A stretch of 64,000 bases of DNA from Candidatus Latescibacterota bacterium (GTDB lineage: Bacteria > Latescibacterota > UBA2968): NCBI GenBank assembly GCA_965208125.1, contig OZ242320.1, positions 2,752,001-2,816,000 of the forward strand, read 5' to 3'. The notes under the pieces are model-generated. The model was given only the letters and a program-made list of their open reading frames with translations, searched no databases and was not told the origin of the DNA. Of this stretch, positions 38,572 to 61,106 are shown piece by piece. The position numbers and the translations under genes were made by a program. Position 1 is the first letter of the stretch, and every line of letters starts with the position of its first letter.

Positions 38572-38667
38572 CGTCACGCCGGCAGGATTTAATCCGGCGT
38601 CCAGCTTCTACATTACTGCATAGCTAAAACATACTGGATTGCGGCTAAACACCATACCGCGATGACG
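38572..38667. repeat. Composite palindromic element between pstS and pstC
   Basis: CGTCACGCCGG..CCGGCGTCCAG ... CTGGATTGCGG..CCGCGATGACG: two hairpins in inverted arrangement. Confidence 0.65.
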
Positions 38668-38694
38668 AGCACCTTTCCCGTCTCACTCTTTATT

Positions 38695-40935
38695 ATGGCA
38701 CTTCCATTGAAACCATTATCAAAGCGACAATTGCCCGGCATCACGCCAAAGGCACGTCTGATGGATCGCACTGGACAGTGGGTGATCACTGCTGGCGGCA
38801 TCGGGGTGATCCTGTCGGTGTTGGGCATTTTTCTTTTTGTGTTGATGGAGTCCTATCCCCTGTTTTTGAAGCCGAGCGTGTCCAGGGTGCATACCTTTGA
38901 TTTTTCGCACCGTCAGCCGGTTCTGTGTACGGGGGTTGACCCCTATCAGGCGGTGATGTTTGTCGTGCATGAAGCGGGGATTGATTTTGTGGATATGACT
39001 ACAAAGTCTGTGACAAAGTCTGTGTATCCCCCAGAACTACAGGGACGGCGTATTCGGGCAGCTTATCGCGCTCTGGATAACACGCATGTTGGTCTGGGGC
39101 TGGAAGACGGTACAATGCTGGGCTGCCGCGTGAATTTTGCCGTGGATTACGATGCGGAGGGAAAACAGATTGTGACGCCGTCTTTTTCTGTTGAGTCGTC
39201 GATGGTTCTAACCGATCAAGCTCTTGCACATCTCGTATTTCGGCACGATGGGGAATCCCGAAGTACGGTACTTGGTATTGCGGATTCCGGGCAACTCGTT
39301 TTGGGAATTTCCGAAACACAGCGCGGTCTTTTGGGCGGTGGTACAACAACAGTTCGCACATACGATTTGACTGATGAGATCAAAGGGCGCGCCAGGGTAG
39401 GTGCTGTGGCAAAATCGGGACGCTATGTTCTGGTGGGCACAGACCGCGGTGAAGTATTTCGGTGGGAAATTGGACGGAGGGGTTCCAATCCCAGGCTGTT
39501 GGATTATTTTCGGGTTTCCGACCAGGAGGTGACTGCGCTGGATTTTGTGCTGGGTGATGTGTCGCTCGTTGTGGGCGATTTGGGTGGTCGCGTATCTGTC
39601 TGGATGCCCGTCAGGGCGAGCGAGGGCGACAATAAAAGGGCGTTCAAAAAGATCCATACTTTGCGGTCTCATCGCGCGGCGGTGGTTGCACTGGCGTCGT
39701 CTGCTCGCGACAAACAGTTTTTATCGGGCGATGTAGCGGGAATGGTTGCATTGCATCACATGACATCGGAACAAACGTTTTTCGAATTGTCCGGTGATGG
39801 CCCCATTCGAGCCATGGCTTTCGCGCCCAAAGTGGATGGCTTTTTGACAGTGAGCGGGTCGGGGCAGGTGACGGATTTCGACCTCCAAAATCCACATCCT
39901 GAAGTGACGTTACAAACGCTTTTTGGCAAAGTGTGGTACGAGGGATATACGGAGTCTCAATACGTGTGGCAATCCACGGGGGGATCGGATGATTTTGAGC
40001 CCAAGTTGAGTATTGTACCTTTGATATTTGGCACATTTAAGGGCACGCTTTACGCCATGTTATTCGCGCTGCCTCTGGCAGTTCTGGCGGCGATTTACAC
40101 ATCGGAATTTGCGTCTCCCAACGTGCGTGGTGTGGTCAAACCCGTGGTGGAGTTGATGGCTTCGCTTCCCAGTGTGATTCTGGGCTTTTTAGCTGGTTTG
40201 TGGTTGGCACCGCTTCTGGAGACGAGGATTGTCGGTGCCCTGTTGTTGTTACCCTGTGTGCCCATTGTGGTGGTGGTATGTGCGTGGGCGTGGAGACAGA
40301 TGTCCGAAGATTTTGCGCGCAGAATACCGGATCACTGGATTCTAACTTTGTTGGCTGGTATCGCGTTGTTCGCGCTCTATCTGTCGTTCGCGCTCGGTCC
40401 GGTAGCTGAGTCGCTTTTGTTTGGCGGCAATTTTCAAGGCTGGCTGCTCGGCACAACGGGTACGCGCTACGATCAGCGCAATTGTCTGGTGGTGGGCTTT
40501 GCGATGGGATTTGCCGTAGTGCCCATTATTTATACGATCTGCGAAGATGCTCTGTCGAGTGTGCCACAGCATCTGCGCGCTGGATCACTCGCGCTTGGCG
40601 CAACGCCTTGGCAAACCGCTATCCGCGTGGTGTTGCCCACGGCGAGCCCGGGTATTTTTTCCGCGACTATGATTGGATTCGGTCGCGCTGTGGGCGAAAC
40701 GATGATTGTGTTGATGGCTACGGGCAATACTCCGATTCTGGATTGGAGCATTTTTAACGGCATGCGCACGATGTCGGCCAATATCGCCGTGGAGATTCCC
40801 GAAGCACCCCATGAAGGTACGCTTTATCGCGTGTTGTTTTTGACAGGGGTTTTGCTGGCGGCGATTACTTTTTTGGTGAATACGCTGGCAGAAGTGGTGC
40901 GGCAGCGTTTGCGCGAGAAGTATAGCAGGATCTGA
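38695..40935 (+). CDS. pstC: Phosphate ABC transporter permease PstC, long form with beta-propeller-like domain
   Basis: WD40-like repeats; KPVVELMASLPSV, GSLALGATPWQT, GRAVGETMIVLMATGN; start 38695 or 38761. Confidence 0.92.
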   Translation: MALPLKPLSKRQLPGITPKARLMDRTGQWVITAGGIGVILSVLGIFLFVLMESYPLFLKPSVSRVHTFDFSHRQPVLCTGVDPYQAVMFVVHEAGIDFVDMTTKSVTKSVYPPELQGRRIRAAYRALDNTHVGLGLEDGTMLGCRVNFAVDYDAEGKQIVTPSFSVESSMVLTDQALAHLVFRHDGESRSTVLGIADSGQLVLGISETQRGLLGGGTTTVRTYDLTDEIKGRARVGAVAKSGRYVLVGTDRGEVFRWEIGRRGSNPRLLDYFRVSDQEVTALDFVLGDVSLVVGDLGGRVSVWMPVRASEGDNKRAFKKIHTLRSHRAAVVALASSARDKQFLSGDVAGMVALHHMTSEQTFFELSGDGPIRAMAFAPKVDGFLTVSGSGQVTDFDLQNPHPEVTLQTLFGKVWYEGYTESQYVWQSTGGSDDFEPKLSIVPLIFGTFKGTLYAMLFALPLAVLAAIYTSEFASPNVRGVVKPVVELMASLPSVILGFLAGLWLAPLLETRIVGALLLLPCVPIVVVVCAWAWRQMSEDFARRIPDHWILTLLAGIALFALYLSFALGPVAESLLFGGNFQGWLLGTTGTRYDQRNCLVVGFAMGFAVVPIIYTICEDALSSVPQHLRAGSLALGATPWQTAIRVVLPTASPGIFSATMIGFGRAVGETMIVLMATGNTPILDWSIFNGMRTMSANIAVEIPEAPHEGTLYRVLFLTGVLLAAITFLVNTLAEVVRQRLREKYSRI

Positions 40936-48039: not shown

Positions 48040-50319
48040 ATGGAGAGAGATCAGGCCCTGAAAAGTTTTTTCAAAATATGTTGTGGCGTGATGCTATCTA
48101 CAATTCTGACGTTGGCTTCGATGAGCGTGAGCACGGTTGGTATTGCGCTGGCAGCGGCGCCCTCGCAAAAGCCACGGCTGGGTAAAGTTAGCTTTGATCA
48201 AGTGATCGATGTGAACAATATCGCGATGTTTGTGACCAATCAGGGATCGTTTGCCTGGAATCTGACGACTGGATATTCGGGTCTTGAATTTCCCAAGGGC
48301 ACGTACGGGCAAACTGCGGTCTTTGCCGCGGGACCGTGGATTGCGGGCAAGGTCAATGGCGAGATTCGCGTGGCGATTGCCGAGTATTCATTTGAGTTTG
48401 CGCCCGGGCCTATTTTGCCCGATGGCACACCCGCTGACCCACAACTCGACCGCTATCGCGTGTATAAGATCAACAAAGGCGATGGTCCGGAAAATCCGGA
48501 TTACGCGCAGTGGCCGGTTGAAGACGGTGCGCCAGTTAATCCCGACGGTACGCCAATGGTGCTGGGTGATCAGACCCTGTGGGCGGTGTATAACGATGCC
48601 GATCCCGGCGTTCACGTCAATATGCAGACCGCGCCTTTGGGCATTGAAATACAGCAGACGACATTTGGGTTTGACCGCACAGATCCACTTGGCAATGTGG
48701 TATTCATCAAATTTTTAATCATCAACAAGGGTGGTAATACCATCGACAGCACGTATGTGTCGCTGTGGTCTGATCCCGATCTGGGGCAGTTAGATAACGA
48801 CCTGGTGGGTTGTGATGTGGAGACCAGCTTTGGGTTTTGTTATAACGGATCGAATACAGACTCGCAGTATGGTTCGTCACCTCCAGCCGTGGGGTATGAC
48901 TTTTTTAAGGGTCCGATTGGCGATGACGGTGTGGAATTGCCGATGACGTCGTTTAACAAATATATCAACGGTACCGATCCATACACCGCAGAACAGGTCT
49001 ATAACTATATGAAGGGCCTTGATCCAGATGGCGGTGTGGCTCTGCACACTGATCCGATTACGGGTCAGGTGAAGGCATTTATGGTCGATGGCGATCCGGT
49101 TGCGGGTACGGGCTGGCTTGACGAAAATCCGGCTGACCGGCGTTTGATGCTCACGGCGGGTCCATTTACCTTCGCACCTGGCGATACGCAGGAAGTGGTG
49201 GTGGGGATTATTATGGGTCAAGGTCAAGATCGTCTCACGTCGATTACGGCTGTGCGGGTTAACGATACGTTTGCACAATCGGCTTTTGATGCCGATTTTG
49301 TTGTATTTCCTCCGCCTCCGCCTCCGTCTCCTCCGACGCCTCCGCCCCCTCCGCCCCCACCTCCTGTTGGTATAAAGGATTGGGATATTCCATCGGGCGG
49401 GCGCTGGTACACCTGGGCAAATACCGATTGGGGGGCCGAAGGCTTCGGTGGTGCAATGACGGGCGATATTGCCCATCAATGGTTTGGCCCGACGAGTGTG
49501 CCACCTTCGCGCTTGGTCAATGTGGAATTGCGATTTACCAGTGTGATTGAAGATGAAGGCGAAGATCAGTACAAACCCATTGACTTGACCAATCCCAATG
49601 TGTCGTGGGGATATCGGTATTTGCGCAGCGCAGGTGCTCCTGCTCCTGCACCGGCAGATCAGACGACTACAAAATCACCTTATGACTGGAGCAATTATAT
49701 CATCAATACATCGGGTCCCGGTGAATATGTGTATCAGGAGCGCAATCCAATCGCGCTTTCGGCCTGGGATGTTGAAAATAACCGCCGTCTCGAAGTGGGT
49801 TGGCTGGAAAACAATCAGCCCGGCGGCCTGGTCAATGGTGCGTATGGTCCGGCCTATTACAACGATGTGAGCAATCTGGCGACCAGTGGACCGCGCGAGT
49901 GGCTGTTCATTTTTGATCGGGATTATACCGAGCCGGATGATGATTCCAATTTGGCGGAGTTGTCACAGGGCTTGATCAACGACAACCCGGCGCCGCCCAT
50001 TATGTATATCATTTTTGCTGCGCGCCGTATCGCGGATCGGTTTCCGCAGGATGGCGATTCGTTTTTGATTCTGGTCAATCGCGTCAACGACACCAATCCC
50101 GGCGATTTTAATGGCGATGGCACGATTAACTTTTCCGATTTTCTTTTGTTCATTGTGGCTTTTGGTACAGGTTCAGGAGATGCAGGTTTCGATGCTCAGA
50201 TGGATCTCAATGGCGATGGCATGATTGACTTTTCCGATTTTCTGATCTTTGTCGGTCATTATGGGAGTGGTACCTCTGGTTCGAAGGCCGCGCTGCCACT
50301 GCCCTTTCCCTATAGGTAA
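48040..50319 (+). CDS. Secreted protein: rearranged paralog of 53455..56577 with poly-Pro linker and C-terminal dockerin-like double EF-hand
   Basis: Signal peptide; two blocks near-identical to 53455..56577; PPPPPPSPPTPPPPPPPPP; GDFNGDGTINFSDF...DLNGDGMIDFSDF. Confidence 0.85.
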   Translation: MERDQALKSFFKICCGVMLSTILTLASMSVSTVGIALAAAPSQKPRLGKVSFDQVIDVNNIAMFVTNQGSFAWNLTTGYSGLEFPKGTYGQTAVFAAGPWIAGKVNGEIRVAIAEYSFEFAPGPILPDGTPADPQLDRYRVYKINKGDGPENPDYAQWPVEDGAPVNPDGTPMVLGDQTLWAVYNDADPGVHVNMQTAPLGIEIQQTTFGFDRTDPLGNVVFIKFLIINKGGNTIDSTYVSLWSDPDLGQLDNDLVGCDVETSFGFCYNGSNTDSQYGSSPPAVGYDFFKGPIGDDGVELPMTSFNKYINGTDPYTAEQVYNYMKGLDPDGGVALHTDPITGQVKAFMVDGDPVAGTGWLDENPADRRLMLTAGPFTFAPGDTQEVVVGIIMGQGQDRLTSITAVRVNDTFAQSAFDADFVVFPPPPPPSPPTPPPPPPPPPVGIKDWDIPSGGRWYTWANTDWGAEGFGGAMTGDIAHQWFGPTSVPPSRLVNVELRFTSVIEDEGEDQYKPIDLTNPNVSWGYRYLRSAGAPAPAPADQTTTKSPYDWSNYIINTSGPGEYVYQERNPIALSAWDVENNRRLEVGWLENNQPGGLVNGAYGPAYYNDVSNLATSGPREWLFIFDRDYTEPDDDSNLAELSQGLINDNPAPPIMYIIFAARRIADRFPQDGDSFLILVNRVNDTNPGDFNGDGTINFSDFLLFIVAFGTGSGDAGFDAQMDLNGDGMIDFSDFLIFVGHYGSGTSGSKAALPLPFPYR
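48103..49299 (+). repeat. Direct repeat block 1, copy A (copy B at about 53473..54666)
   Basis: Colinear, near-identical DNA and protein (ILTLA...FAQSAFDA[DN]F) with scattered, mostly synonymous changes. Confidence 0.95.
49369..50088 (+). repeat. Direct repeat block 2, copy A (copy B at about 55462..56190)
   Basis: G[IM]KDWDIPSG...FPQDGDSFL shared, interrupted by divergent patches. Confidence 0.9.
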
Positions 50320-50550: not shown

Positions 50551-53439
50551 ATGACAAGATGGATAATCGCACTTGTTGCGATGTCGTTTTTATCCGCATC
50601 GGCGATGGCCGGGGTGACGGGTAAAATTGTGGGTCAGGTTGTTGACAAAGATGACGGTGGTAGTTTGCCCGGTGCCAATGTGGTGGTTCTGGGCTTGCAC
50701 AGTGTCTTTGGTGCGACATCCGATACCGAAGGTAATTTTGTGATTTTGAATGTGCCAGCAGGCACTTTTGACGTAAAATGCAGCTTTATCGGGTATCAAG
50801 ACGTGGTGCTCAAGGGCATCAAGGTGTTACCCGATTTGACTACGGAAGTAGATTTTGTGCTTACAGCACAGGCTCTGGAAGGCGAAACTATTGAAGTGGT
50901 GGCGGAGCGTCCGCTGGTGCAGAAAGACAAGACCAGCTCGATGCGCCTCGTAACCAGCGAAGAACTCGAGTATATGCCGGTTCGCGGGTATGCAGCGGCC
51001 ACGTCCTTGCAGGCGGGTGTGACGAATCGGAACGGCTCTCTTTACATACGCGGTGGGCGGTTTTCAGAAGTTGACTACATTGTCGATGGCGTATCGCAGA
51101 AGAATTTGCAGTATGGCTCATCGACCACGGCCCTGAGCAATGGTGCTATAGATCAGGTATCCGTGATTGTGGGTGGGTTTGAAGCGGAGTATGGGCGCGT
51201 GATGTCGGGCGTTGTCAAGGTGGTGACGCGCGAAGGCGGGCAGAACTATTCGGGGTCTGTGGAACACATCACCGATGAGTGGAATGACCGCAGTTGGGCC
51301 GGTGCGCCCTCTTATGGGTATAACACTACCGAAGCGACACTGGGTGGTCCACTCATTCCCGGGACGAACGGGCCTTCGTTTTTTGTCTCTGGAGACCGCG
51401 TCGATCGCCTCGACCGCAGTCCGCGCTGGGGTGTGGAAGCCCACGAGTGGGAAAAAGACCTTTTGCCAAAGGAAGATTACGATCTGCTCAGCGAGGGCAT
51501 ATTGCCGCATTATACGCTCGACAGCTGGAGCTGGCAGGGCAAACTGGCGTATCGATTGTCCGACGAAATCGATCTGAAAGCAGGGATTATAGGCTCAAAA
51601 TATGATCGCTTGAGCTATAGTCACTCATATCGCTATAATTTGCGGCATGCGCCGCGTGCCAAAAGCAATAACTATTCGGCGTTTGCTCGCGTGACCTACA
51701 CGCTCGGAGCAAAGACCTTCTTCACCTTGCAAACAAGTATGTTCGATCAGAATTTCAAGGCGGGTGACGGGGTTCATTTCGACAATTTGCACGACTATGC
51801 CCGTCCCCAGGGCAATCCGCGTTATGACGCGGAAAGTTTGTTTGCCCGCGGCGATGTGGATTCCACCGAGATTACGCGGACAACGGAAACCATCAATGAT
51901 CGCTCTATAACGTATTTTGAAGGCGATGAAGGGCGCATATATAATAGCTTTACGCAAAGCAGTTCATTTTATCTCACGCCTATCGACTTTGATTTGACCA
52001 GTCAGGTCAGCCGCAATCACCAGTTCAAGCTCGGTTTTGACGTGCAGATGCATCGGTTGCGTTATTATCGTCATCTGGTCCCCAGTTTGATCTTTCGCGG
52101 TCCATTCGTCAGCACAGACGACAGGGGTGGCTTTCAGGATGTAGATCGCTACGGGTATGATTACAACTGGAATAAACAGGGCATTGAGCCTCTGGATTCT
52201 ACCCGCGACGCGCAAAAAGAACCCATTTTGGCCTCGTTTTACGTGCAGGACAAGATGGAATACGACGGTTTGATCATCAATGCGGGCGTGCGATACGATT
52301 ATTTGAATGCGAGTACCGATGTGCTGGCGAATGAAGGCGTGCCACTGGGTGGCGATTCGACATTGGATCCATCGGATCTGGCTGGCAACAGCGTGTATCA
52401 CAAGATCAGCCCGCGTCTGGGCGTTGGATTTCCCGTTACAGATAAGACCGTGTTTCACATGAACTACGGTATTTTTTATCAGCAACCCAAGCTGGAAGAC
52501 CTGTATGTTGGTCTGGATTATCTGGAATACAAAGCGCCACTGGGGGGATATTATTACGCTTTTGGCAATCCGAATCTCAGACCGGAAAAAACCACGGCTT
52601 ATGAAGTGGGTGTGGTGCAGCAGGTGGGTGACCATGCCAGTGTCGATGTGACGGCGTATTACAAAGCCGTGGAAAACCTCGTCCAGGTGACGACAATTCC
52701 GTCTGATCCCGTGGCTTTTGCCTCGTTCCGCAACAACGACTACGGAACCATTAAGGGGCTGGACTTTGGTTTGCTAATGCGTCGCATAGGGCGCACAACA
52801 GCACGCATCTCTTATTCACTGGCTTATGCGACGGGCACGGGATCATCGCCACAAACCCAGCGGCGGATCGCCTGGAGCTTCCAACCCGGCGTGACCGAGC
52901 CGCCCAAATCGACCTCACCGCTCGACTTTGATCAACGCCACAAAATTTCGGCATCGATCGACTATCGCTTTGTAGATAAAGACGGCCCGAGGTTCCTGGG
53001 CGGTCAGCCGCTGTCCAATGCCGGGATCAATGTGTTGTTCACAGCCGGGAGTGGATTCCCCTATACCCCCACGTTTACGTTTAATGAAGTGACTACAGGG
53101 GCTTCGGCGTCACGTCCTTCGGGACCGGTGAATTCCAGCTATGGTCCCTGGACATTCAGGACTGATGTGAAGGCGAATAAGCGTTTCAAAATTATAGGAC
53201 TTCAGGGTGACATATACGTATGGGTGCTCAATTTGCTCAACCGCGCCAACGCAACCAGTCCCGTGTATTCGAGCACGGGTAGCCCAATGACTTCGGGCTG
53301 GTTGAATACAGCTGAAGGCCGCAAATTTGTGGAGCGCTTTGGTCAACTGGGCGAAGACAAATACAAGCTCAAAGAGAACAGCCCATTCAACTTTGGCACG
53401 CCGCGGCAGGTTCGCTTCGGACTCGCGCTCAGCTTCTAA
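50551..53439 (+). CDS. TonB-dependent receptor with N-terminal carboxypeptidase-regulatory-like domain
   Basis: Signal peptide, GKIVGQVVD..LPGANVVV, plug IRGGR..YIVDG, GGFEAEYG, GNPNLRPEKT, C-terminal PRQVRFGLALSF. Confidence 0.95.
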   Translation: MTRWIIALVAMSFLSASAMAGVTGKIVGQVVDKDDGGSLPGANVVVLGLHSVFGATSDTEGNFVILNVPAGTFDVKCSFIGYQDVVLKGIKVLPDLTTEVDFVLTAQALEGETIEVVAERPLVQKDKTSSMRLVTSEELEYMPVRGYAAATSLQAGVTNRNGSLYIRGGRFSEVDYIVDGVSQKNLQYGSSTTALSNGAIDQVSVIVGGFEAEYGRVMSGVVKVVTREGGQNYSGSVEHITDEWNDRSWAGAPSYGYNTTEATLGGPLIPGTNGPSFFVSGDRVDRLDRSPRWGVEAHEWEKDLLPKEDYDLLSEGILPHYTLDSWSWQGKLAYRLSDEIDLKAGIIGSKYDRLSYSHSYRYNLRHAPRAKSNNYSAFARVTYTLGAKTFFTLQTSMFDQNFKAGDGVHFDNLHDYARPQGNPRYDAESLFARGDVDSTEITRTTETINDRSITYFEGDEGRIYNSFTQSSSFYLTPIDFDLTSQVSRNHQFKLGFDVQMHRLRYYRHLVPSLIFRGPFVSTDDRGGFQDVDRYGYDYNWNKQGIEPLDSTRDAQKEPILASFYVQDKMEYDGLIINAGVRYDYLNASTDVLANEGVPLGGDSTLDPSDLAGNSVYHKISPRLGVGFPVTDKTVFHMNYGIFYQQPKLEDLYVGLDYLEYKAPLGGYYYAFGNPNLRPEKTTAYEVGVVQQVGDHASVDVTAYYKAVENLVQVTTIPSDPVAFASFRNNDYGTIKGLDFGLLMRRIGRTTARISYSLAYATGTGSSPQTQRRIAWSFQPGVTEPPKSTSPLDFDQRHKISASIDYRFVDKDGPRFLGGQPLSNAGINVLFTAGSGFPYTPTFTFNEVTTGASASRPSGPVNSSYGPWTFRTDVKANKRFKIIGLQGDIYVWVLNLLNRANATSPVYSSTGSPMTSGWLNTAEGRKFVERFGQLGEDKYKLKENSPFNFGTPRQVRFGLALSF

Positions 53440-53454
53440 ATGGGAGGTTAGAAC

Positions 53455-56400
53455 ATGAAAAGCTTTTTGAATATTCTGACGCTGGCTTTGATGAGCGTGA
53501 GCATGGCTGGCATTGCGCTGGCTGTATCGCCCTCGCAAAAGCCGCGATTGGGTAAAATTAGCAATGATCAAGTGATTGATGTGAACAATATCTCAATGTT
53601 TGTGACCAACCAGGGATCATTTGCCTGGGATCTGGCGACCGGGGCTTCGGGTCTTGAATATCCCAAGGGCACGGGCAAAACCGCGGTATTTGCCTCCGGT
53701 CCGTGGATTGCGGGGAAGGTCAATGGAGAGATTCGGGTGGCGATTGCCGAGTATTCATTTGAGTATGCGCCCGGGCCGATTTTGCCCGATGGCACACCCG
53801 CCGATCCGCAACTCGACCGCTATCGGGTGTATAAGATCAGCAGAGGTGATGGCCCGGAAAACCCGGATTATGCGCAGTGGCCGGTTGAAGACGGCGCGCC
53901 GGTCAATCCCGACGGTACGCCGATGGTGCTGGGCGATCAGACCCTGTGGGCGGTGTATAACGATGCCGATCCCGGCGTCCACGCCAATATGCAGACCGCA
54001 CCTTTGGGCGTTGAAATACAGCAGACGACATTTGCGTTCGACCGCACAGGTCCTCTTGGCAATGTGGTGTTCATCAAATTTTTGATCATCAACAAGGGTG
54101 GCAATACCATCGATAGCACGTATGTGTCGCTGTGGTCTGATCCCGATCTGGGTCAGTTCGATAACGACCTGGTGGGCTGCGATGTTGAGACCAGCTTTGG
54201 GTTTTGTTATAACGGGTCAAATGTAGATGCGCAGTACGGTTCGTCACCTCCAGTCGTGGGATATGACTTTTTCAAGGGTCCGATTGGCGATGACGGTGTG
54301 GAATTGCCGATGACGTCGTTTAACAAATATATCAACGGCACGGATCCTCAAACCGCAGAAGAGACCTTTAATTATATGAAGGGCCTTGATCCGGATGGCG
54401 GCGTTGCCGATCACACCGATCCAATTACAGGTCAGGTGAAGGCATTTATGGTCGATGGAGATCCGGTTACGGGCGCGGGCTGGCTTGACGAAAATCCGGC
54501 TGATCGCCGCTTTATGCTCACGGCGGGTCCGTTTACCTTTGCGCCCGGCGATACGCAGGAAGTGGTGGGCGCCATTATTATAGGTCAAGGTCAAGATCGT
54601 CTCACGTCGATTACAGCCGCGCGTTTTAACGATACATTTGCACAATCGGCTTTTGATGCCAATTTTGAATTGCCATCGCCTCCGCCTGCACCCAAAGTAT
54701 CCGTGGGGATAACAGGGGATCACGGAGGCAATGGTAGAATTCAGTTGACCTGGGGTAGTGACTCAGAAGTTGCCTCGGGCGATTATGCATTCGAAGGTTA
54801 TAACGTGTACCAGGGCGAGTCGGTTGCTGGTCCCTGGAGGCGTCTTGTGACTTATGACGTGGTCAATGGCTCGGCCATTATTTTTGACAGTCAGTTCGAT
54901 GAAGGTGCCGGTGTGGTGATCAACTCGCCCGTGCAATTTGGCGGCGACTCGGGTATTCGGCGCTTTATTGAACTCACCGAGGATAAGGTTTTGGGTGGTC
55001 GTCTGGTGACGGGTAAAACCTATTATTTTGCAGTGACGGCCTATTCGTTGAATGAGAGCAGGTCGCCAAAAACGCTCGAGACATCCATCACACCTCTGGC
55101 CGATGGGCGCATGACGTTTAAGCCCCTTTCGGATGAGATGATTCCGGCCAATGGCATTGTGCCGCGCGGACCCACTGCGGGTACGCGCTTCAATACCGTG
55201 GGTGTGGATAGTGTTGTTGAACACACATCGGGTGTAAGCGATGGTATTGTGGCTGTGGAGGTGGTTGACGATACACGGGTCACGGGCGCGTCTTACGAAG
55301 TGCGCTTCCGCGATACCGAGGCCGGAACGGTTTGGGATCTGATCAATCTGTCGAGTGGTCAGGCCGTGCTTTCAGATATGCAGCAGCACGCAAATATAGA
55401 TGATGCGATTACCAATCCAATTGTCGAGGGTTTGCTCGTGCGCGTTACCGGTCCTCCCCTTGGCATGAAAGATTGGGATATTCCATCGGGTGAGCGGTGG
55501 ATGACGTGGTTTCATACCAGTCCCTATTTGGCTGGTTTTTCTACTGAAGGCTTCGGAGGTGCGATAACGGGCGATGTTGCCCATAGTTGGTTTGGTCCCA
55601 CGAGCGTGTCACCTTCGCAGTTGGTCAATGTGGAATTGCGATTTACCAGTGTGATTGAGGATGATGGCGAAGATCAGTACAAACCCCTCGACCTGACCAA
55701 TCCCAATGTGTCGTGGGGATATCGGTATTTGCGCGCCGCGGGCAGACCTGCACCTGCTCCCGAAGAACTAACCCTGTCCCATGTGCCTTATGACTGGAGT
55801 GATTACATCGTCAATACAGAAGGTCCCGGTGTTTATGTGTATCAAGACCGGAGGCCCATTGCACTGTCTGCATGGGATGTTGAAAATAATCGGCGCCTTG
55901 AAGTGGGCTGGCTGGAAAACAATCTGGCCGGTGGCCTGGTCAATGGAGCCTGGGGACCGCCACTTGGTGACGATGTGCCCCATACGTTTGTCGCCCGTGA
56001 GTGGCTGTTCATTTTTGATCGGGATTATACCGAGCGGAACGATGATTCCAATTTGGCGGAGTTGTCTCAGGGCTTGATCAACGATGCGCCGGCACCGCCC
56101 ATTATGTATATCCTTTTTGTTAATCGCCGCACGGCAGATCGTTTCCCGCAGGATGGCGATTCATTTTTGATGATCGCCAATAAAATCAATACCCCCAACG
56201 ATGTGTTTTTATTTAACACGCAGGGGACTCTCCGCGGTGATCAGGAGTTGGCGGTGGAGGATTTGACAAAAATTCTGGCGGTGCCCAATCCGTATCTGGG
56301 GCGTTCGTCTTATGAATTTAACTCTCTTGCACGCCAGATGCGTTTTACCAATCTTCCCGCGCAGTGTACGATCCGAATTTTCAGTCTGTCGGGCGATCTG

Positions 56401-56577
56401 GTGCGAACGATTGAGCACAATAACGGTCTGTCGTTTGATACCTGGGATCTAAAAACAGATCAGGGCGTGCTGGTTGCCAGCGGCATTTATATCGCGCATT
56501 TTGACGCGCCAAATATCGGTACGCATTTTATCAAGTGCGCGGTGTTCATGGAAGCTGAGACGCTGAACACATTTTAA
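53455..56577 (+). CDS. Large secreted protein with FN3-like domain and C-terminal T9SS type-A-like sorting domain
   Basis: Signal peptide; IQLTW..FEGYNVY..YYFAVTAY (FN3-like); VPNPY..FTNLP..IRIFSLSGDLVRTI..WDL..VASGIYI. Confidence 0.85.
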   Translation: MKSFLNILTLALMSVSMAGIALAVSPSQKPRLGKISNDQVIDVNNISMFVTNQGSFAWDLATGASGLEYPKGTGKTAVFASGPWIAGKVNGEIRVAIAEYSFEYAPGPILPDGTPADPQLDRYRVYKISRGDGPENPDYAQWPVEDGAPVNPDGTPMVLGDQTLWAVYNDADPGVHANMQTAPLGVEIQQTTFAFDRTGPLGNVVFIKFLIINKGGNTIDSTYVSLWSDPDLGQFDNDLVGCDVETSFGFCYNGSNVDAQYGSSPPVVGYDFFKGPIGDDGVELPMTSFNKYINGTDPQTAEETFNYMKGLDPDGGVADHTDPITGQVKAFMVDGDPVTGAGWLDENPADRRFMLTAGPFTFAPGDTQEVVGAIIIGQGQDRLTSITAARFNDTFAQSAFDANFELPSPPPAPKVSVGITGDHGGNGRIQLTWGSDSEVASGDYAFEGYNVYQGESVAGPWRRLVTYDVVNGSAIIFDSQFDEGAGVVINSPVQFGGDSGIRRFIELTEDKVLGGRLVTGKTYYFAVTAYSLNESRSPKTLETSITPLADGRMTFKPLSDEMIPANGIVPRGPTAGTRFNTVGVDSVVEHTSGVSDGIVAVEVVDDTRVTGASYEVRFRDTEAGTVWDLINLSSGQAVLSDMQQHANIDDAITNPIVEGLLVRVTGPPLGMKDWDIPSGERWMTWFHTSPYLAGFSTEGFGGAITGDVAHSWFGPTSVSPSQLVNVELRFTSVIEDDGEDQYKPLDLTNPNVSWGYRYLRAAGRPAPAPEELTLSHVPYDWSDYIVNTEGPGVYVYQDRRPIALSAWDVENNRRLEVGWLENNLAGGLVNGAWGPPLGDDVPHTFVAREWLFIFDRDYTERNDDSNLAELSQGLINDAPAPPIMYILFVNRRTADRFPQDGDSFLMIANKINTPNDVFLFNTQGTLRGDQELAVEDLTKILAVPNPYLGRSSYEFNSLARQMRFTNLPAQCTIRIFSLSGDLVRTIEHNNGLSFDTWDLKTDQGVLVASGIYIAHFDAPNIGTHFIKCAVFMEAETLNTF

Positions 56578-56603
56578 CGAACCGCTGAATGGAGGAATAA
56601 CTT

Positions 56604-57659
56604 ATGTTCAGGCAGATGATTTTTCTGTTTGCCGCGCTGGCATTGATCGTTCAGGATGCCCGTGCAGGCGATGAGAGCCGTATCGGCACAGCCGCAGCAC
56701 AAGAGTTGCGCATTCCAATTGGTTCGCGCGGTACAGCACTTGGAGGCGCCATACTGGCTCATGTAAAAGGTGCGGAGGCATTGCAGTGGAATCCTTCGGG
56801 ATTGGTATTTGGAACGCACAAACGCGAAGTCTTGTTTTCATATCTGGATTATATTGCAGATATGAATGTGAACTATTTTGCGATTACCACGCGTCTGCGC
56901 GATGATATTTCGGTGGGGATCAGTGCCCGTGCGTTAGCAGTGGGCGATATTATTGTGACGACCGAGGAATCGCCCGAAGGTACGGGTGAGATACTCTCTC
57001 CGAGGTTTTCGTGTGTGACATTTACGTATTCGCAATTGTTGACAGATCGCGTGTCGTTTGGCACTACGATTAAATATATCCACGAGGCGATTAAGCGAGA
57101 GGTTGCCAATGGCCTGGCGTTTGATTTTGGTTTCCAGTACAAAACCGCACTCAAAGGTTTAACGCTGGGTATTGCTATGCGCAACTATGGTCCAGACATG
57201 CGGTTTGATGGTCCGGATCTGGATCGGGTGGTGAGATTGCAAGACGCGATTCCAGAGGCTGATCCCCAAGCCGGGTCGCGCACTTTCCGCACGTCACTGG
57301 CATCTGCGGAGTTGCCCACGTCCATAGAAATCGGTTTTTCCTATGCTTTCTATGAAGACGCGCTGGGCAAAGCTGCTTTTTCTGCGACCTTCCGCAATAA
57401 CAATCTGGCGACTGACGAGTATCAGGCTGGCGTTGAGTATTCGATGAAGCAAATTCTTCAGTTGCGCGGAGGGTATGTGACGTCTCCAACCGGTGATGCC
57501 CTGCCCAACGGGTTTAAGAAGGAATATATTCTCGGTCCGACGTTTGGGTTTGGTCTCAATGTGCCTATGGGCAATATGGCTTTTCAAGTGGATTATGCCT
57601 ATGGCAGAACTGAGTACTTTCAGGATAATCACTGGGTGACTGTGGGGCTTGGGTTTTAG
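56604..57659 (+). CDS. PorV/PorQ family outer-membrane beta-barrel protein
   Basis: Signal peptide, AAQELRIPIGSRGTALGGA, WNPSGL, AFDFGFQY, LRGGY, DYAY, C-terminal Phe. Confidence 0.85.
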   Translation: MFRQMIFLFAALALIVQDARAGDESRIGTAAAQELRIPIGSRGTALGGAILAHVKGAEALQWNPSGLVFGTHKREVLFSYLDYIADMNVNYFAITTRLRDDISVGISARALAVGDIIVTTEESPEGTGEILSPRFSCVTFTYSQLLTDRVSFGTTIKYIHEAIKREVANGLAFDFGFQYKTALKGLTLGIAMRNYGPDMRFDGPDLDRVVRLQDAIPEADPQAGSRTFRTSLASAELPTSIEIGFSYAFYEDALGKAAFSATFRNNNLATDEYQAGVEYSMKQILQLRGGYVTSPTGDALPNGFKKEYILGPTFGFGLNVPMGNMAFQVDYAYGRTEYFQDNHWVTVGLGF

Positions 57660-57729
57660 AAGTGTGAAGTATGAAGTGTGAAGTATGAAGGGTGGCCTTC
57701 TCTTCTAACTTCTCACTTCTTTCTTCTCA
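57659..57729. repeat. Heptamer tandem repeats with an inverted partner array
   Basis: (GAAGTGT GAAGTAT)x2 GAAG, then ggtggc, then CTTCT/CTTCTAA/CTTCTCA units. Confidence 0.75.
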
Positions 57730-57740
57730 TAGGTGTATTT

Positions 57741-57785
57741 AACCGCCTGCATTGGTTTTTATTACCAATGTCAGGCGGTTTTTTT
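57741..57785 (+). terminator. Intrinsic terminator of the TBDR-PorV cassette
   Basis: AACCGCCTG-CATTGGT...ACCAATG-t-CAGGCGGTT followed by a T run. Confidence 0.85.
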
Positions 57786-57841
57786 CTTCTTTGAAAATCC
57801 TATTTATATAAAAAACAATAAGATAGGGTCTGAAGAGTGTT

Positions 57842-58974: not shown

Positions 58975-59118
58975 ATGATCGCTTATCTAAAAAAAATGAA
59001 AAATCGAACATACGAAATTCTCGAAGTCGCTGATCTTACCCGCCGCATTAAAAAGGAATTGTCCAGGCGCAAGCTCATTCCGTCTGATGTGCGTTTTACC
59101 GATGTTGTTGATGATTGA
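58975..59118 (+). pseudogene. 47-aa ORF, possible deletion remnant of an ion-transporter gene
   Basis: TTGACA at 58924 and SD GGAG upstream; KNRTYEILEVA recalls K+ channel N-termini; overlaps the start of the next gene. Confidence 0.3.
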
Positions 59119-61106
59119 TAAGGTGGCTTGTATTGGAAAATTTTTTTTTCAAACTACGATCGCGAACTACTGACCCGTTTGCGCGATTGAAAAATTATCT
59201 GAAATTTCGCGTTGAGCGATTGTTGTTGAGCGGAGCACATTCTCGATTGCTATTTATCGCGTCCTTAATTGGCATTGTCGCTGTTGGTGGGGGGTTGCTG
59301 GTGCAAGAAACGGATGCGCCTTTTGATGATAGCGAAACAGCTATCTGGTGGGCATTTTTGCGTTTGACCGATCCGGGTTATTTGGGGGATGACGAAGGGC
59401 TTGCCCGCCGCGTGATTTCAACGGTGGTAACGGTGCTTGGGTACGTGCTTTTTATGGGGTCGTTGATCGCGATTATGACGCAGTGGCTCAATCAGACAAT
59501 TCGCGATTTTGAGCGCGGGCTTACGCCCATTGTGCGTCGCAATCACATTTTGATTTTGGGATGGACCAATCGCACGTCTGAAATTGTCAGCGAGTTGATG
59601 CGCGCCGAAGGTCGCGTGCGCCGGTTTTTACAACTGCTCGGTGCGCGCGGATTACATGTGGTGATTCTTTCCGAAGACGTGAGTTTAGAGCGCACAATGG
59701 AATTGCGGAGAGCACTGGGTCCTTTGTGGAATCCTAAGAAGATTACATTTCGGTCGGGGATACCCCTGCGGATAGAACATCTGGAGCGCGTGGATTTCCA
59801 AAACGCGGGTGCCATTATTTTGCCCGGTGCTGATTTTGCTTATGGCAGTGCGGATGAATCGGATACGCGTATCATAAAAACACTGTTGTCGATATCGACT
59901 CAGCGGGAAAAAGAAGATGAGATAGAAGTTCTGCCTTTGCTGGTGACAGAAATTTTCGATTCCGACAAAGTGTTTATGGCAAAGAGAGCCTATCGGGGTA
60001 TTTTAGAGATTTTGGCGAGTGATCTTTTTATTACGCGATGTATGGCGCAAAATGTGCGTCATCCGGGATTGTCACAGGTGTTCCACGATATCTTGTCGCA
60101 CGGGGTTGGCAATGAGGTCTATGTGCGAATGTGCGAGGAGTTTATAGGTTTTCGTTTTGGCGATCTATCAGCTGCGTATCCCAAAGCGATTTTGCTGGGC
60201 GTGGTGCGTCCTCAAGGTGAAACATTTTGCCCCCTGCTCAATCCACCCGGGGATCTGATTTTGGAATCAGAAGACCGTCTGGTCTTTTTGGCAGAAGGAT
60301 ACGAGGATTGTGAACCTCTGAGAAATTATCAGTTAGAACGTGTATCGCGTAAATTTCAAGAGGTGCCCCATGTGACGGAAAAAGGCAAACGACGCATCTT
60401 AATTTTAGGATGGAATCACAAAGCTGCGGTTTTGCTTAAAGAATTCGGCAGGCAAATGCGCGAACAATTTGAGATCGCGGTTTTGTCTCTTATACCCCCG
60501 GCACAAAGAGAAGCTGAAGTGGCGCAAAAAGGTATTGACCCGCGCCGAGTCGTTGTCACCCATCGCGAAGGCGACCCCACTTCTCTATCAGATTTAAGAG
60601 AAATGGATCCAGGTGGGTATGACAATGTGGTGATTTTGGGCAGTGACTGGGTAGAGACACAGGAAGAGTCAGATGCGCGGACGATTGTGGGACATCTGGT
60701 GCTGAGGAATGTGCTGGATGAGAGCACGCATGAACCAGAAATTCTGGTTGATTTGATGGATTCCGAAAATGTGGCGCTATTTGAAGATTACGATACAGAG
60801 GTTCTGGTTACGCCAATGATCGCAAGCCATGTGCTGGCACAGGTTGCGTTGCGTCGGGAGATCAATGTCGTTTATGAAGAGTTATTTGCCGCCGGTGGTG
60901 CAGAAATTTTCTTTCGCCGGGTTTCAGATTACGGCATAGCAGGTAAAAATGTGAACTTTGGAGAAATAAAAGAGATGTCGGCCTGGCGGGGCGAAATCGC
61001 GCTGGGTATTCGCCAAAACGGCGGGGTTGCGCTCAATCCGACGCCTGATGAGCCATGTGTGCTAAGTGAATCGGATGATCTTATTGTATTGGTTCGGGAG
61101 GATTAA
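59115..61106 (+). CDS. CASTOR/POLLUX/DMI1-like ion channel (2 TM + tandem RCK)
   Basis: WWAFLRLTDPGYLGDD pore region, NHILILGW twice, SDTRIIKTLL / SDARTI. Confidence 0.85.
   Translation: MIRWLVLENFFFKLRSRTTDPFARLKNYLKFRVERLLLSGAHSRLLFIASLIGIVAVGGGLLVQETDAPFDDSETAIWWAFLRLTDPGYLGDDEGLARRVISTVVTVLGYVLFMGSLIAIMTQWLNQTIRDFERGLTPIVRRNHILILGWTNRTSEIVSELMRAEGRVRRFLQLLGARGLHVVILSEDVSLERTMELRRALGPLWNPKKITFRSGIPLRIEHLERVDFQNAGAIILPGADFAYGSADESDTRIIKTLLSISTQREKEDEIEVLPLLVTEIFDSDKVFMAKRAYRGILEILASDLFITRCMAQNVRHPGLSQVFHDILSHGVGNEVYVRMCEEFIGFRFGDLSAAYPKAILLGVVRPQGETFCPLLNPPGDLILESEDRLVFLAEGYEDCEPLRNYQLERVSRKFQEVPHVTEKGKRRILILGWNHKAAVLLKEFGRQMREQFEIAVLSLIPPAQREAEVAQKGIDPRRVVVTHREGDPTSLSDLREMDPGGYDNVVILGSDWVETQEESDARTIVGHLVLRNVLDESTHEPEILVDLMDSENVALFEDYDTEVLVTPMIASHVLAQVALRREINVVYEELFAAGGAEIFFRRVSDYGIAGKNVNFGEIKEMSAWRGEIALGIRQNGGVALNPTPDEPCVLSESDDLIVLVRED

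Follow-up and report, generated by a model that had tools for sequence, protein, structure and literature searches.

The DNA studied here is a window of 64,000 nucleotides (nt) from a Candidatus Latescibacterota bacterium (contig OZ242320.1, positions 2,752,001 to 2,816,000). On one strand it carries three closely spaced genes encoding a TonB-dependent receptor, a secreted protein of 1040 amino acids (aa), called the middle protein below, and an outer-membrane barrel of the PorV/PorQ family. Computational analysis of this cassette suggests an uptake unit in which the barrel would hold the C-terminal tail of the middle protein at the cell surface next to the receptor. The unit and its boundaries are as follows, in window coordinates.

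50551-53439, + strand: TonB-dependent receptor gene, 962 aa
53455-56577, + strand: gene for the secreted middle protein, 1040 aa
56604-57659, + strand: gene for the PorV/PorQ-family outer-membrane barrel, predicted partner of the tail domain, 351 aa
57659-57726, + strand: long imperfect purine-rich/pyrimidine-rich hairpin directly 3' of the barrel stop codon, from the fold of 57657-57795
57741-57787, + strand: intrinsic-terminator-like hairpin at the end of the unit, 16 pairs with one bulge (57741-57780), then U7

The gene unit and its first two products

Gaps of 15 nt (receptor/middle protein) and 26 nt (middle protein/barrel) separate the genes, and a signal peptide can be read at the N-terminus of all three products. 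Folding of 57657-57795 gave -57.8 kcal/mol (z -8.85), a value matched by none of 200 shuffled sequences. In the first hairpin a purine-rich repeat, GAAGTGTGAAGTAT, which is present twice, pairs with the pyrimidine-rich stretch. RNA-library contigs of relatives diverge at this hairpin, with loose ends at 57654-57694. The second hairpin was missed by a pattern-based terminator scan, for which its loop length or bulge is taken as the cause, and a promoter scan was uninformative (15 sites versus 10.9 ± 3.0 expected). There is no SusD-like gene within the unit, and SusD_RagB gave a single weak match genome-wide (31.2 bits, with an in-frame TAG). Open reading frame (ORF) coordinates, hairpin fold and family searches agree with the layout given in the preliminary description of this DNA, namely three genes with these gaps, a single terminator and no SusD.

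The receptor has the following features.

aa 1-20: signal peptide
aa 26-114 (50626-50892): CarboxypepD_reg domain
aa 112-119 (50884-50907): TonB-box-like ETIEVVAE, read from the sequence
aa 125-218 (50923-51204): plug
after the plug, reaching the C-terminus: barrel

The CarboxypepD_reg, plug and TonB-dependent barrel domains were matched by PF13620, PF07715, PF00593 and PF25183 of Pfam, with scores of 30.3 bits for PF07715 (cut-off 23.9) and 90.6 bits for PF00593 (cut-off 27). ETIEVVAE resembles the TonB-box consensus. By its plug and barrel scores and this motif, the product of the first gene is classed as a TonB-dependent receptor. The name SusC/RagA was absent among those of the 16 NCBIfam families that matched the receptor at E ≤ 0.01. 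Judged by this family model and by an adjacent gene for a SusD-like lipoprotein, neither of which was found, the receptor falls outside the SusC/RagA subfamily.

The middle protein was divided as follows.

aa 1-23: signal peptide; a lipobox cysteine is absent, as read from the sequence
aa 33-405 (53551-54669): β-supersandwich, from the structure model
aa 382-401: helix, from the structure model
aa 415-555 (54697-55119): FN3-like domain
aa 560-935 (55132-56259): variable domain
aa 937-1032 (56263-56550): tail domain with seven predicted strands, 94.4 bits with a hidden Markov model (HMM) of cassette tails
56551-56574: conserved end ...ETLNTF, an extension of eight residues after the tail

Pfam contains no family for the window's middle protein, a sequence profile search of the PDB gave no match, the protein atlas returned unnamed clusters only, and matches in NCBIfam were confined to the last ~100 residues. 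A model of the full-length protein, based on an alignment of 44 of 120 listed homologs, reached a predicted local distance difference test (pLDDT) score of 82.3 and a predicted template modelling (pTM) score of 0.67. In this model residues ~33-405 form a galactose-mutarotase-like β-supersandwich. Its best match is the non-catalytic N-domain region of dextran dextrinase (9ju0; Z 19.6, root-mean-square deviation 3.2, 251 residues aligned), followed by the N-domains of glucodextranase (1ulv, Z 19.5) and glucoamylase (1lf6, Z 19.4) and, lower, by enzymes of glycoside hydrolase (GH) families GH116, GH94 and GH65 and by lyases. Residues 560-935 are the least conserved part of the protein. Folded alone, this domain scored pLDDT 85.4 and pTM 0.84, and the best fold match was an unconvincing Z of 8.9 over 89 of its 376 residues, to flagellar junction proteins, while Foldseek returned nothing at E ≤ 0.001; a new fold is not claimed on these grounds.

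These results bear on the possibility that the middle protein, on display next to the receptor, acts as an enzyme instead of binding passively, for instance as a hydrolase or lyase that attacks glycans or the cell wall. Enzymes of families GH15, GH116, GH94 and GH65, like polysaccharide lyases, carry the supersandwich as an accessory domain, the unmatched 376-residue variable domain could hide an active site, and the middle protein family has many invariant positions. However, neither the Pfam and NCBIfam searches nor the PDB sequence profile and fold searches identified a catalytic domain or family, and the supersandwich is non-catalytic in the matched enzymes. We consider a catalytic role quite unlikely.

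Tail domain, barrel and their predicted complex

The seven strands of the tail are predicted at residues 941-1030, a number also given for solved sorting domains in the accessible part of PMC11285876, and some homologs carry the FlgD_ig domain (PF13860). Its best matches in NCBIfam are the C-terminal ends of PorZ and PorU. The PorZ model NF052228 was matched by the tail only (25 bits, cut-off 260), and the body of the middle protein is not PorZ-like. For CHU_C, the type B sorting domain, Pfam gave no match in the window's middle protein; in two of eight paralogs searched it was found weakly, at 18.4 and 21.3 bits (cut-off 27), and nothing else came from Pfam. The PorP/SprF family TIGR03519 was not among the families listed for the window's barrel and scored 19.5-35 bits (cut-off 90.55) with some of its paralogs. 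On these scores the window's cassette is not a type B sorting domain with a PorP/SprF barrel.

The barrel is a member of the PorV/PorQ family (NF033709, 170.4 bits, cut-off 90) and fails the equivalog models of both PorQ (NF033711, 83.3 bits, cut-off 220) and PorV (NF033710, 70 bits, cut-off 250). Its profile matches the solved PorV of F. johnsoniae (E 1.5e-20) and, weakly, TodX and TbuX (E 2.5e-4 to 7e-3); NCBIfam added a weak BamG match (E 8e-4, 18.5 bits).

For the complex, the barrel and residues 930-1040 of the middle protein were modelled together, with alignments of 36 and 45 sequences, respectively. The interface score ipSAE (interaction prediction score from aligned errors) was 0.86, 0.87 and 0.86, and the best of three controls scored 0.00. 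The partner had a pLDDT of 78, and contacts agreed by at least 84% between runs. The mark set for the tool is reached by 58 of 80 solved complexes and by 2 of 110 mismatched pairs, rates that are rough here since our own alignments were used. On the barrel side the interface comprises the conserved N-terminal segment 24-37 and the 111-126 loop, and on the tail side residues 941-949 (VPNPY), 974-983, 1001-1017 and 1023-1034. Invariant positions of the family lie inside it (P944, N945, P946, F976, G980, G1010, F1031 and E1033). An interface between the C-terminal domain and a PorV-like barrel, as anticipated earlier for this DNA, is predicted.

Multiplicity, conservation and co-divergence of the cassette

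The genome is represented by one contig of 5.75 Mb, and marker genes put its completeness at 96.4%. It holds 15 receptor paralogs at 147 bits or more in a phmmer search, with the next ORF at 49. The PorV/PorQ-family cut-off was passed by 18 ORFs, 15 of which lie 2-4 kb from a receptor paralog. The order receptor, gene of 694-1040 aa, PorV-family barrel was found by our own ORF calls in all cassettes except one at 3.06 Mb (L021, G000:C1:3062591-3068736), where the 2.1 kb separating receptor from barrel contain a 399-aa ORF and shorter ORFs. This cassette, whose middle gene may be broken or shortened, was excluded from the tail and Mantel analyses, which leaves 14 intact cassettes. Among the three PorV-family ORFs outside cassettes, the one at G000:C1:424420-425484 has the genome's best score with the PorV equivalog (163 bits, under the cut-off; cassette barrels at most 70), and it is the likeliest housekeeping PorV.

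All 14 intact middle proteins have a C-terminal domain of ~100 residues in common, with the pattern VPNP(F/Y)...RFxNLP..C.I.IF...GDLV...SGIYF...G.F.I.(K/R). The cassette-tail HMM scored these tails at 94-131 bits, the next ORF of the genome at 27.5 and the PorU-like ORF at 16.5. Since the model was built from the same 14 tails, the informative part is that no other ORF matches. All 14 proteins with this tail are encoded 4-59 nt from a PorV-like ORF. By BLAST the tail alone is common to the window's middle protein and those of the other cassettes. Alignment of the window's family with nine main-type paralogs by hhalign gave a probability of 99.5 (E 4.7e-23, 309 columns) across the N-terminal core as far as the first part of the FN3-like domain, and on this profile evidence the middle proteins of all cassettes are classed as one superfamily.

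A small OMP_b-brl protein precedes many cassettes. Behind two sampled cassettes lie a DUF6785/DUF6784 membrane protein, sulfatases and a sugar transporter of the major facilitator superfamily (MFS), and a third has a GWxTD protein behind the barrel. A DUF6785/DUF6784 membrane protein of ~650-670 aa often follows cassettes (L022, L018, L019 and others). In the literature searched, no paper naming the DUF6785/DUF6784 or GWxTD families was found.

Of 7,999 candidates scored outside this genome, more than 1,695 are relatives of the middle protein (E ≤ 0.001), matched over the full length with 40-94% identity. The listed relatives are all named 'hypothetical' in their sources except for one UniRef entry ('T9SS type A s...', T9SS being the type IX secretion system). 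By organism name they come from Latescibacteria, Zixibacteria and Eisenbacteria, apart from a few whose labels are doubtful. In contigs representing one genome per species a relative was confirmed at 548 of 599 candidate stretches. Gene order was counted for the best 79 loci, of which the nearest (82-96% identity) are titled Latescibacterota and others Zixibacteria, Eisenbacteria, Ignavibacteria and Gemmatimonadota, and only loci with room on the side concerned entered a count. A receptor was found immediately upstream at 63 of 63 loci; for a PorV-family barrel downstream the count was 73 of 73, and for the two together 60 of 60.

Distance matrices over the 14 cassettes correlated with r 0.89 for receptor and barrel, 0.72 for receptor and tail and 0.72 for barrel and tail; none of 5000 permutations was as high. 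Quick maximum-likelihood trees included 26 trio-type rows, that is, the window and 25 of the 60 loci, hand-picked for spread and clean starts. In the barrel tree the trio-type barrels fall on one side, with a Shimodaira-Hasegawa-like approximate likelihood ratio test (SH-aLRT) support of 99, and the 14 other cassette barrels on another (98). The receptor tree has the same split, with support of 98 for the trio type and 99 for the 14 other cassettes. In both trees the other nine cassettes group together with strong support, to the exclusion of par7, par10, par12 and the pair of par3 and par15. The matching trees and correlated distances indicate that the parts were inherited together and not shuffled between cassettes. 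Three conditions under which the preliminary description would have been refuted were examined, and each came out in its favour: the trio is conserved as a unit at related loci of several phyla of the Fibrobacterota-Chlorobiota-Bacteroidota (FCB) group, an interface of barrel and tail is predicted, and the window's barrel is not the only PorV of the genome.

A barrel of this family could also act as a FadL-like substrate channel beside the receptor, with the tail recognised by the general PorV only. PorV-family barrels are FadL homologues, and the weak TodX and TbuX profile matches fit such a role. Against it stand the specificity of the predicted interface (with its controls at 0.00), a tail class that is found only beside such barrels, and a separate barrel lineage for each cargo type across phyla, so that this explanation appears highly improbable.

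Proposed mechanism and comparison with known systems

We propose that the cassette is a modular outer-membrane nutrient-uptake unit of non-Bacteroidota FCB phyla, of which the window's trio would be one copy of 15. The TonB-dependent receptor would import the substrate. The middle protein would be exported with its C-terminal immunoglobulin (Ig)-like tail, probably via an SprA-type translocon. The tail would stay uncleaved and bound in the co-encoded cognate PorV/PorQ-like barrel, which would hold the middle protein on the surface in the manner of PorQ and PorZ. The supersandwich, FN3-like and variable domains of the middle protein could then capture the substrate and present it to the receptor, the role of SusD or surface glycan-binding protein (SGBP) lipoproteins in Bacteroidota. 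To the mechanism as a whole, in which a cognate PorQ-like barrel keeps the partner protein of the TonB importer at the surface, we assign a probability of about 0.55; the barrel-tail pairing taken alone, as modelled, is the more probable part. The computation itself covers the gene unit and its copies, conservation, co-divergence, the tail class and the modelled interface; that the protein is retained at the surface and works with the receptor, and in which direction which substrate is carried, we infer. Import is suggested by the TonB-box-like motif together with the DUF6785/6784 protein, the MFS sugar transporter and the sulfatases behind paralogous cassettes.

Retention of this kind has precedents. 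PorQ anchors PorZ and PorV anchors PorU, according to the accessible part of PMC5562754, and cognate PorV-like barrels have been proposed to shield tails from cleavage (PMC10202324, in the text available). The genome encodes SprA (a 2094-aa frame, 641 bits, over the cut-off) and a PorU-like ORF of 1,905-1,909 aa (265+80 bits, under the cut-off of 420), and ~19 further ORFs have PorU-tail-like ends. In the PorU-like ORF (G000:C1:5504671-5510388) the sortase model is matched at 5-737 and 873-1094, with ~700 extra residues between.

Several results weigh against the proposed mechanism. The tail scores 19.6 bits with the type A sorting domain TIGR04183, under the cut-off of 23. The complex model covers only barrel and tail, the receptor being outside it, and its score, obtained with our own alignments, may partly reflect likeness to solved PorV-substrate structures, which exist (6h3i, 8gl6 and others). 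Co-divergence can also arise by duplication as a unit, without physical contact. Concerning export, GldK was matched at the domain level only (at most 100 bits, cut-off 350), and GldL and GldM had no match in the genome, although their models were unmatched in all control genomes as well, so that absence is not shown. GldM was also unmatched in five other trio-bearing genomes, a result that has no positive control: in the phylum of locus L100, searched for this purpose, none of the 12 species genomes was matched. With so small a phylum, the record title of L100, 'uncultured Bacteroidia', is probably wrong. Neither catabolic nor inner-membrane transport genes stand beside the window's trio. The NlpC/P60-SH3, Amidase_3 and PopA-like proteins encoded near related trios gave no phmmer match (E ≤ 1e-5) in the window's genome. 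Evidence for expression, which comes from RNA-library contigs, is weak.

Two claims of the preliminary description are affected. That a private PorV-like barrel holds the 1040-aa protein by its C-terminal domain gains from the predicted interface and from a tail class restricted to cassettes, and loses from the tail's sub-threshold type A score. Of the T9SS-type machinery it names, SprA and a PorU-like protein are present; the undetected GldL and GldM and the domain-level GldK match leave T9SS-type export not established. Absence of the GldL/GldM motor, if real, would be notable.

Instead of anchoring its cargo, the barrel might be a dedicated secretion adaptor that takes it from the translocon, after which the cargo would be set free or become attached at another site, with co-regulation as the only tie to the receptor. 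Pairs of co-encoded cargo and PorP/SprF are a precedent (PMC10202324, accessible text), the tails of two paralogs are weakly CHU_C-like, and complex prediction is blind to the difference between transient and permanent binding. However, fixed order at 60 of 60 loci and matching receptor and barrel trees are hard to obtain from co-regulation alone, and the tails most similar to this one, those of PorZ and PorU, are retained. We regard this adaptor function as unlikely.

A further option is export through the receptor itself. In Myxococcus xanthus, secretion of PopC depends on the TonB-dependent transporter Oar (PMC6434023, in the part accessible). By analogy the receptor would secrete the middle protein and the barrel would receive it, with no need for a T9SS motor, which fits the missing GldL and GldM matches in this genome and the missing GldM matches in the five others. 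However, SprA and PorU-like genes are present, other proteins of the genome have canonical tails, and the inner-membrane transporters and catabolic enzymes behind paralogous cassettes fit import. To our knowledge there is also no structural precedent for passage of a folded 1040-aa protein through a plugged 22-strand barrel. Oar-type export is thus considered very unlikely.

The anchoring mechanism preferred here resembles several known systems in part. As in the PorQ-PorZ and PorV-PorU pairs of the Porphyromonas gingivalis T9SS attachment complex (PMC5562754 and PMC10202324, both as far as accessible), a barrel of this family would hold a retained Ig-like C-terminal domain, here by prediction. 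Unlike those pairs, the present one is co-encoded, occurs 15-fold, stands in an operon with a TonB receptor and is found outside Bacteroidota; its barrel is under both equivalog cut-offs and its cargo body is not PorZ-like. With SusC/SusD (RagA/RagB) the cassette has in common a CarboxypepD_reg-type TonB transporter adjoining the gene for a surface partner, many paralogous copies, and the position of paralogous cassettes beside sulfatases, sugar transporters and other catabolic genes. It differs in that the SusD fold, a lipoprotein and a SusC/RagA match are missing from the cassette, the partner is β-rich with a sorting tail, and a third gene encodes the partner's predicted anchor. Type B cargo proteins with PorP/SprF barrels in Flavobacterium and Porphyromonas also have clustered cargo and barrel genes, and the barrel is a proposed anchor (PMC10202324, accessible text), whereas here the barrel belongs to the PorV/PorQ family, the tail is not CHU_C above the cut-off and a TonB receptor is part of the unit. 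BamG-BamH of the β-barrel assembly machinery (BAM) complex of Bacteroidota is a further example in which a FadL-like barrel is the platform for a surface protein (PMC12578637), but BamG is essential, occurs in a single copy as a partner of BamA, and binds the N-terminus of a lipoprotein and not a C-terminal Ig-like domain. Finally, Oar is likewise a long receptor with a CarboxypepD_reg N-terminal domain and not of the SusC type; it is implicated in protein export and is described, in the accessible part of PMC6434023, without a co-encoded PorV-like barrel or tailed partner. No published description of the cassette was found in the literature searched, which left subscription journals mostly outside and excluded supplements; it has apparently not been described so far.

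Neighbouring genes, possible substrate and significance

Upstream of the window's trio lie pstCAB-phoU, MoxR, CoxE-VWA, XdhC and a paralog of the middle protein, and downstream PspA, a Castor/Pollux-like channel and MscS. There are no neighbouring genes for carbohydrate-active enzymes and there is no SusC/SusD pair, the features by which a polysaccharide utilisation locus is recognised. Two of the neighbours have unusual domain arrangements. The first permease of the pstC/pstA/pstB/phoU-like cluster (38662-40935, + strand, 757 aa) has sub-cut-off matches to β-propeller/WD40 models at aa ~242-433, ahead of BPD_transp_1. Between PspA and the MscS-type channel, a 663-aa protein (59115-61106, + strand) combines Castor/Pollux-type and RCK domains (68 bits).

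The paralog directly upstream is outside the trio.

48040-50319, + strand: paralog of the middle protein, 759 aa, with a dockerin where the middle protein has its tail domain

It is 90% identical to the middle protein over the supersandwich (aa 22-420 versus 7-404) and 72% identical over the distal variable domain (443-696 versus 669-926), lacks the FN3-like part, and has Dockerin_1 at aa 687-736. In ten Latescibacterota loci (L041-L045, L047-L049, L052 and L097) XdhC lies upstream, ending 3.0-4.3 kb before the middle gene; PspA is downstream in six. In seven of these ten, a count that leaves out L047, L048 and L097, the distance has room for the receptor alone, which indicates that these loci have no dockerin paralog. 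It is skipped as well by RNA-library contigs in which 48018 is joined to 50416. The paralog looks like a recent insertion or duplication that gives the same body a different anchor. Cohesin domains (38 and 36 bits, cut-off 24.1) were found in giant ORFs with frames of 1610 and 2172 aa (L120 and L121; G000:C1:2266947-2271767 and ~2271800-2278400), which have PorU-tail-like sorting domains at their ends. These ORFs are possible surface scaffolds for dockerin proteins such as this paralog.

The RNA-library contigs come from four libraries of four studies (sponge, marine and plain metagenome), are 90-99% alike to the window and cover the three genes. One of 7,597 nt begins in the last part of XdhC, passes directly into the receptor gene and extends to the first part of the barrel gene. 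Since they derive from relatives and DNA carry-over is possible, they indicate presence only and not a single transcript, and depths and gaps are uninformative.

In other phyla the neighbours of the trio hint at a substrate. Three kinds of gene were noted in the fetched flanks, encoding an N-acetylmuramoyl-L-alanine amidase, an SH3-containing NlpC/P60 endopeptidase and an enolase-superfamily protein that resembles L-Ala-D/L-Glu epimerase; 22 of the 79 loci have one or more of them. Four loci (L094, L102, L104 and L106) have the order trio, NlpC/P60-SH3 endopeptidase, LD-carboxypeptidase-like gene (142 bits, under the cut-off of 378), epimerase-like gene and amidase, and L105 has the same order with no amidase within the fetched flank. 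Endopeptidase, carboxypeptidase, epimerase and amidase form the enzyme set for murein peptide breakdown. Cell-wall peptide fragments are thus a reasonable lead, from gene neighbourhood, for the substrate of the window's trio type. In the window's own genome LdcA-like and weak enolase-superfamily matches lie elsewhere, and with the other murein genes unmatched there the lead for this copy is drawn from orthology alone. One may go further and picture the trio type as an ancient muropeptide scavenger of at least five FCB phyla, and the whole class as a lipoprotein-free counterpart of SusC/SusD that uses a reduced SprA/PorV/PorU sorting system without GldLM; we hold this extended version to be doubtful.

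If the proposed mechanism is correct, Latescibacterota, Zixibacteria, Eisenbacteria, Ignavibacteria and Gemmatimonadota would capture nutrients at the surface for TonB-dependent import in a way unlike that of Bacteroidota. A barrel-anchored, tail-sorted protein would replace the SusD lipoprotein in large and mostly uncultured phyla, and type IX-style sorting would be linked to nutrient import. Thousands of proteins now annotated as 'hypothetical' would acquire a function, and the cassette, with 15 copies in this genome, would be a marker from which the substrate range of these phyla could be read. The murein-peptide enzymes encoded beside the trio in other phyla point to recycling of bacterial cell-wall debris.

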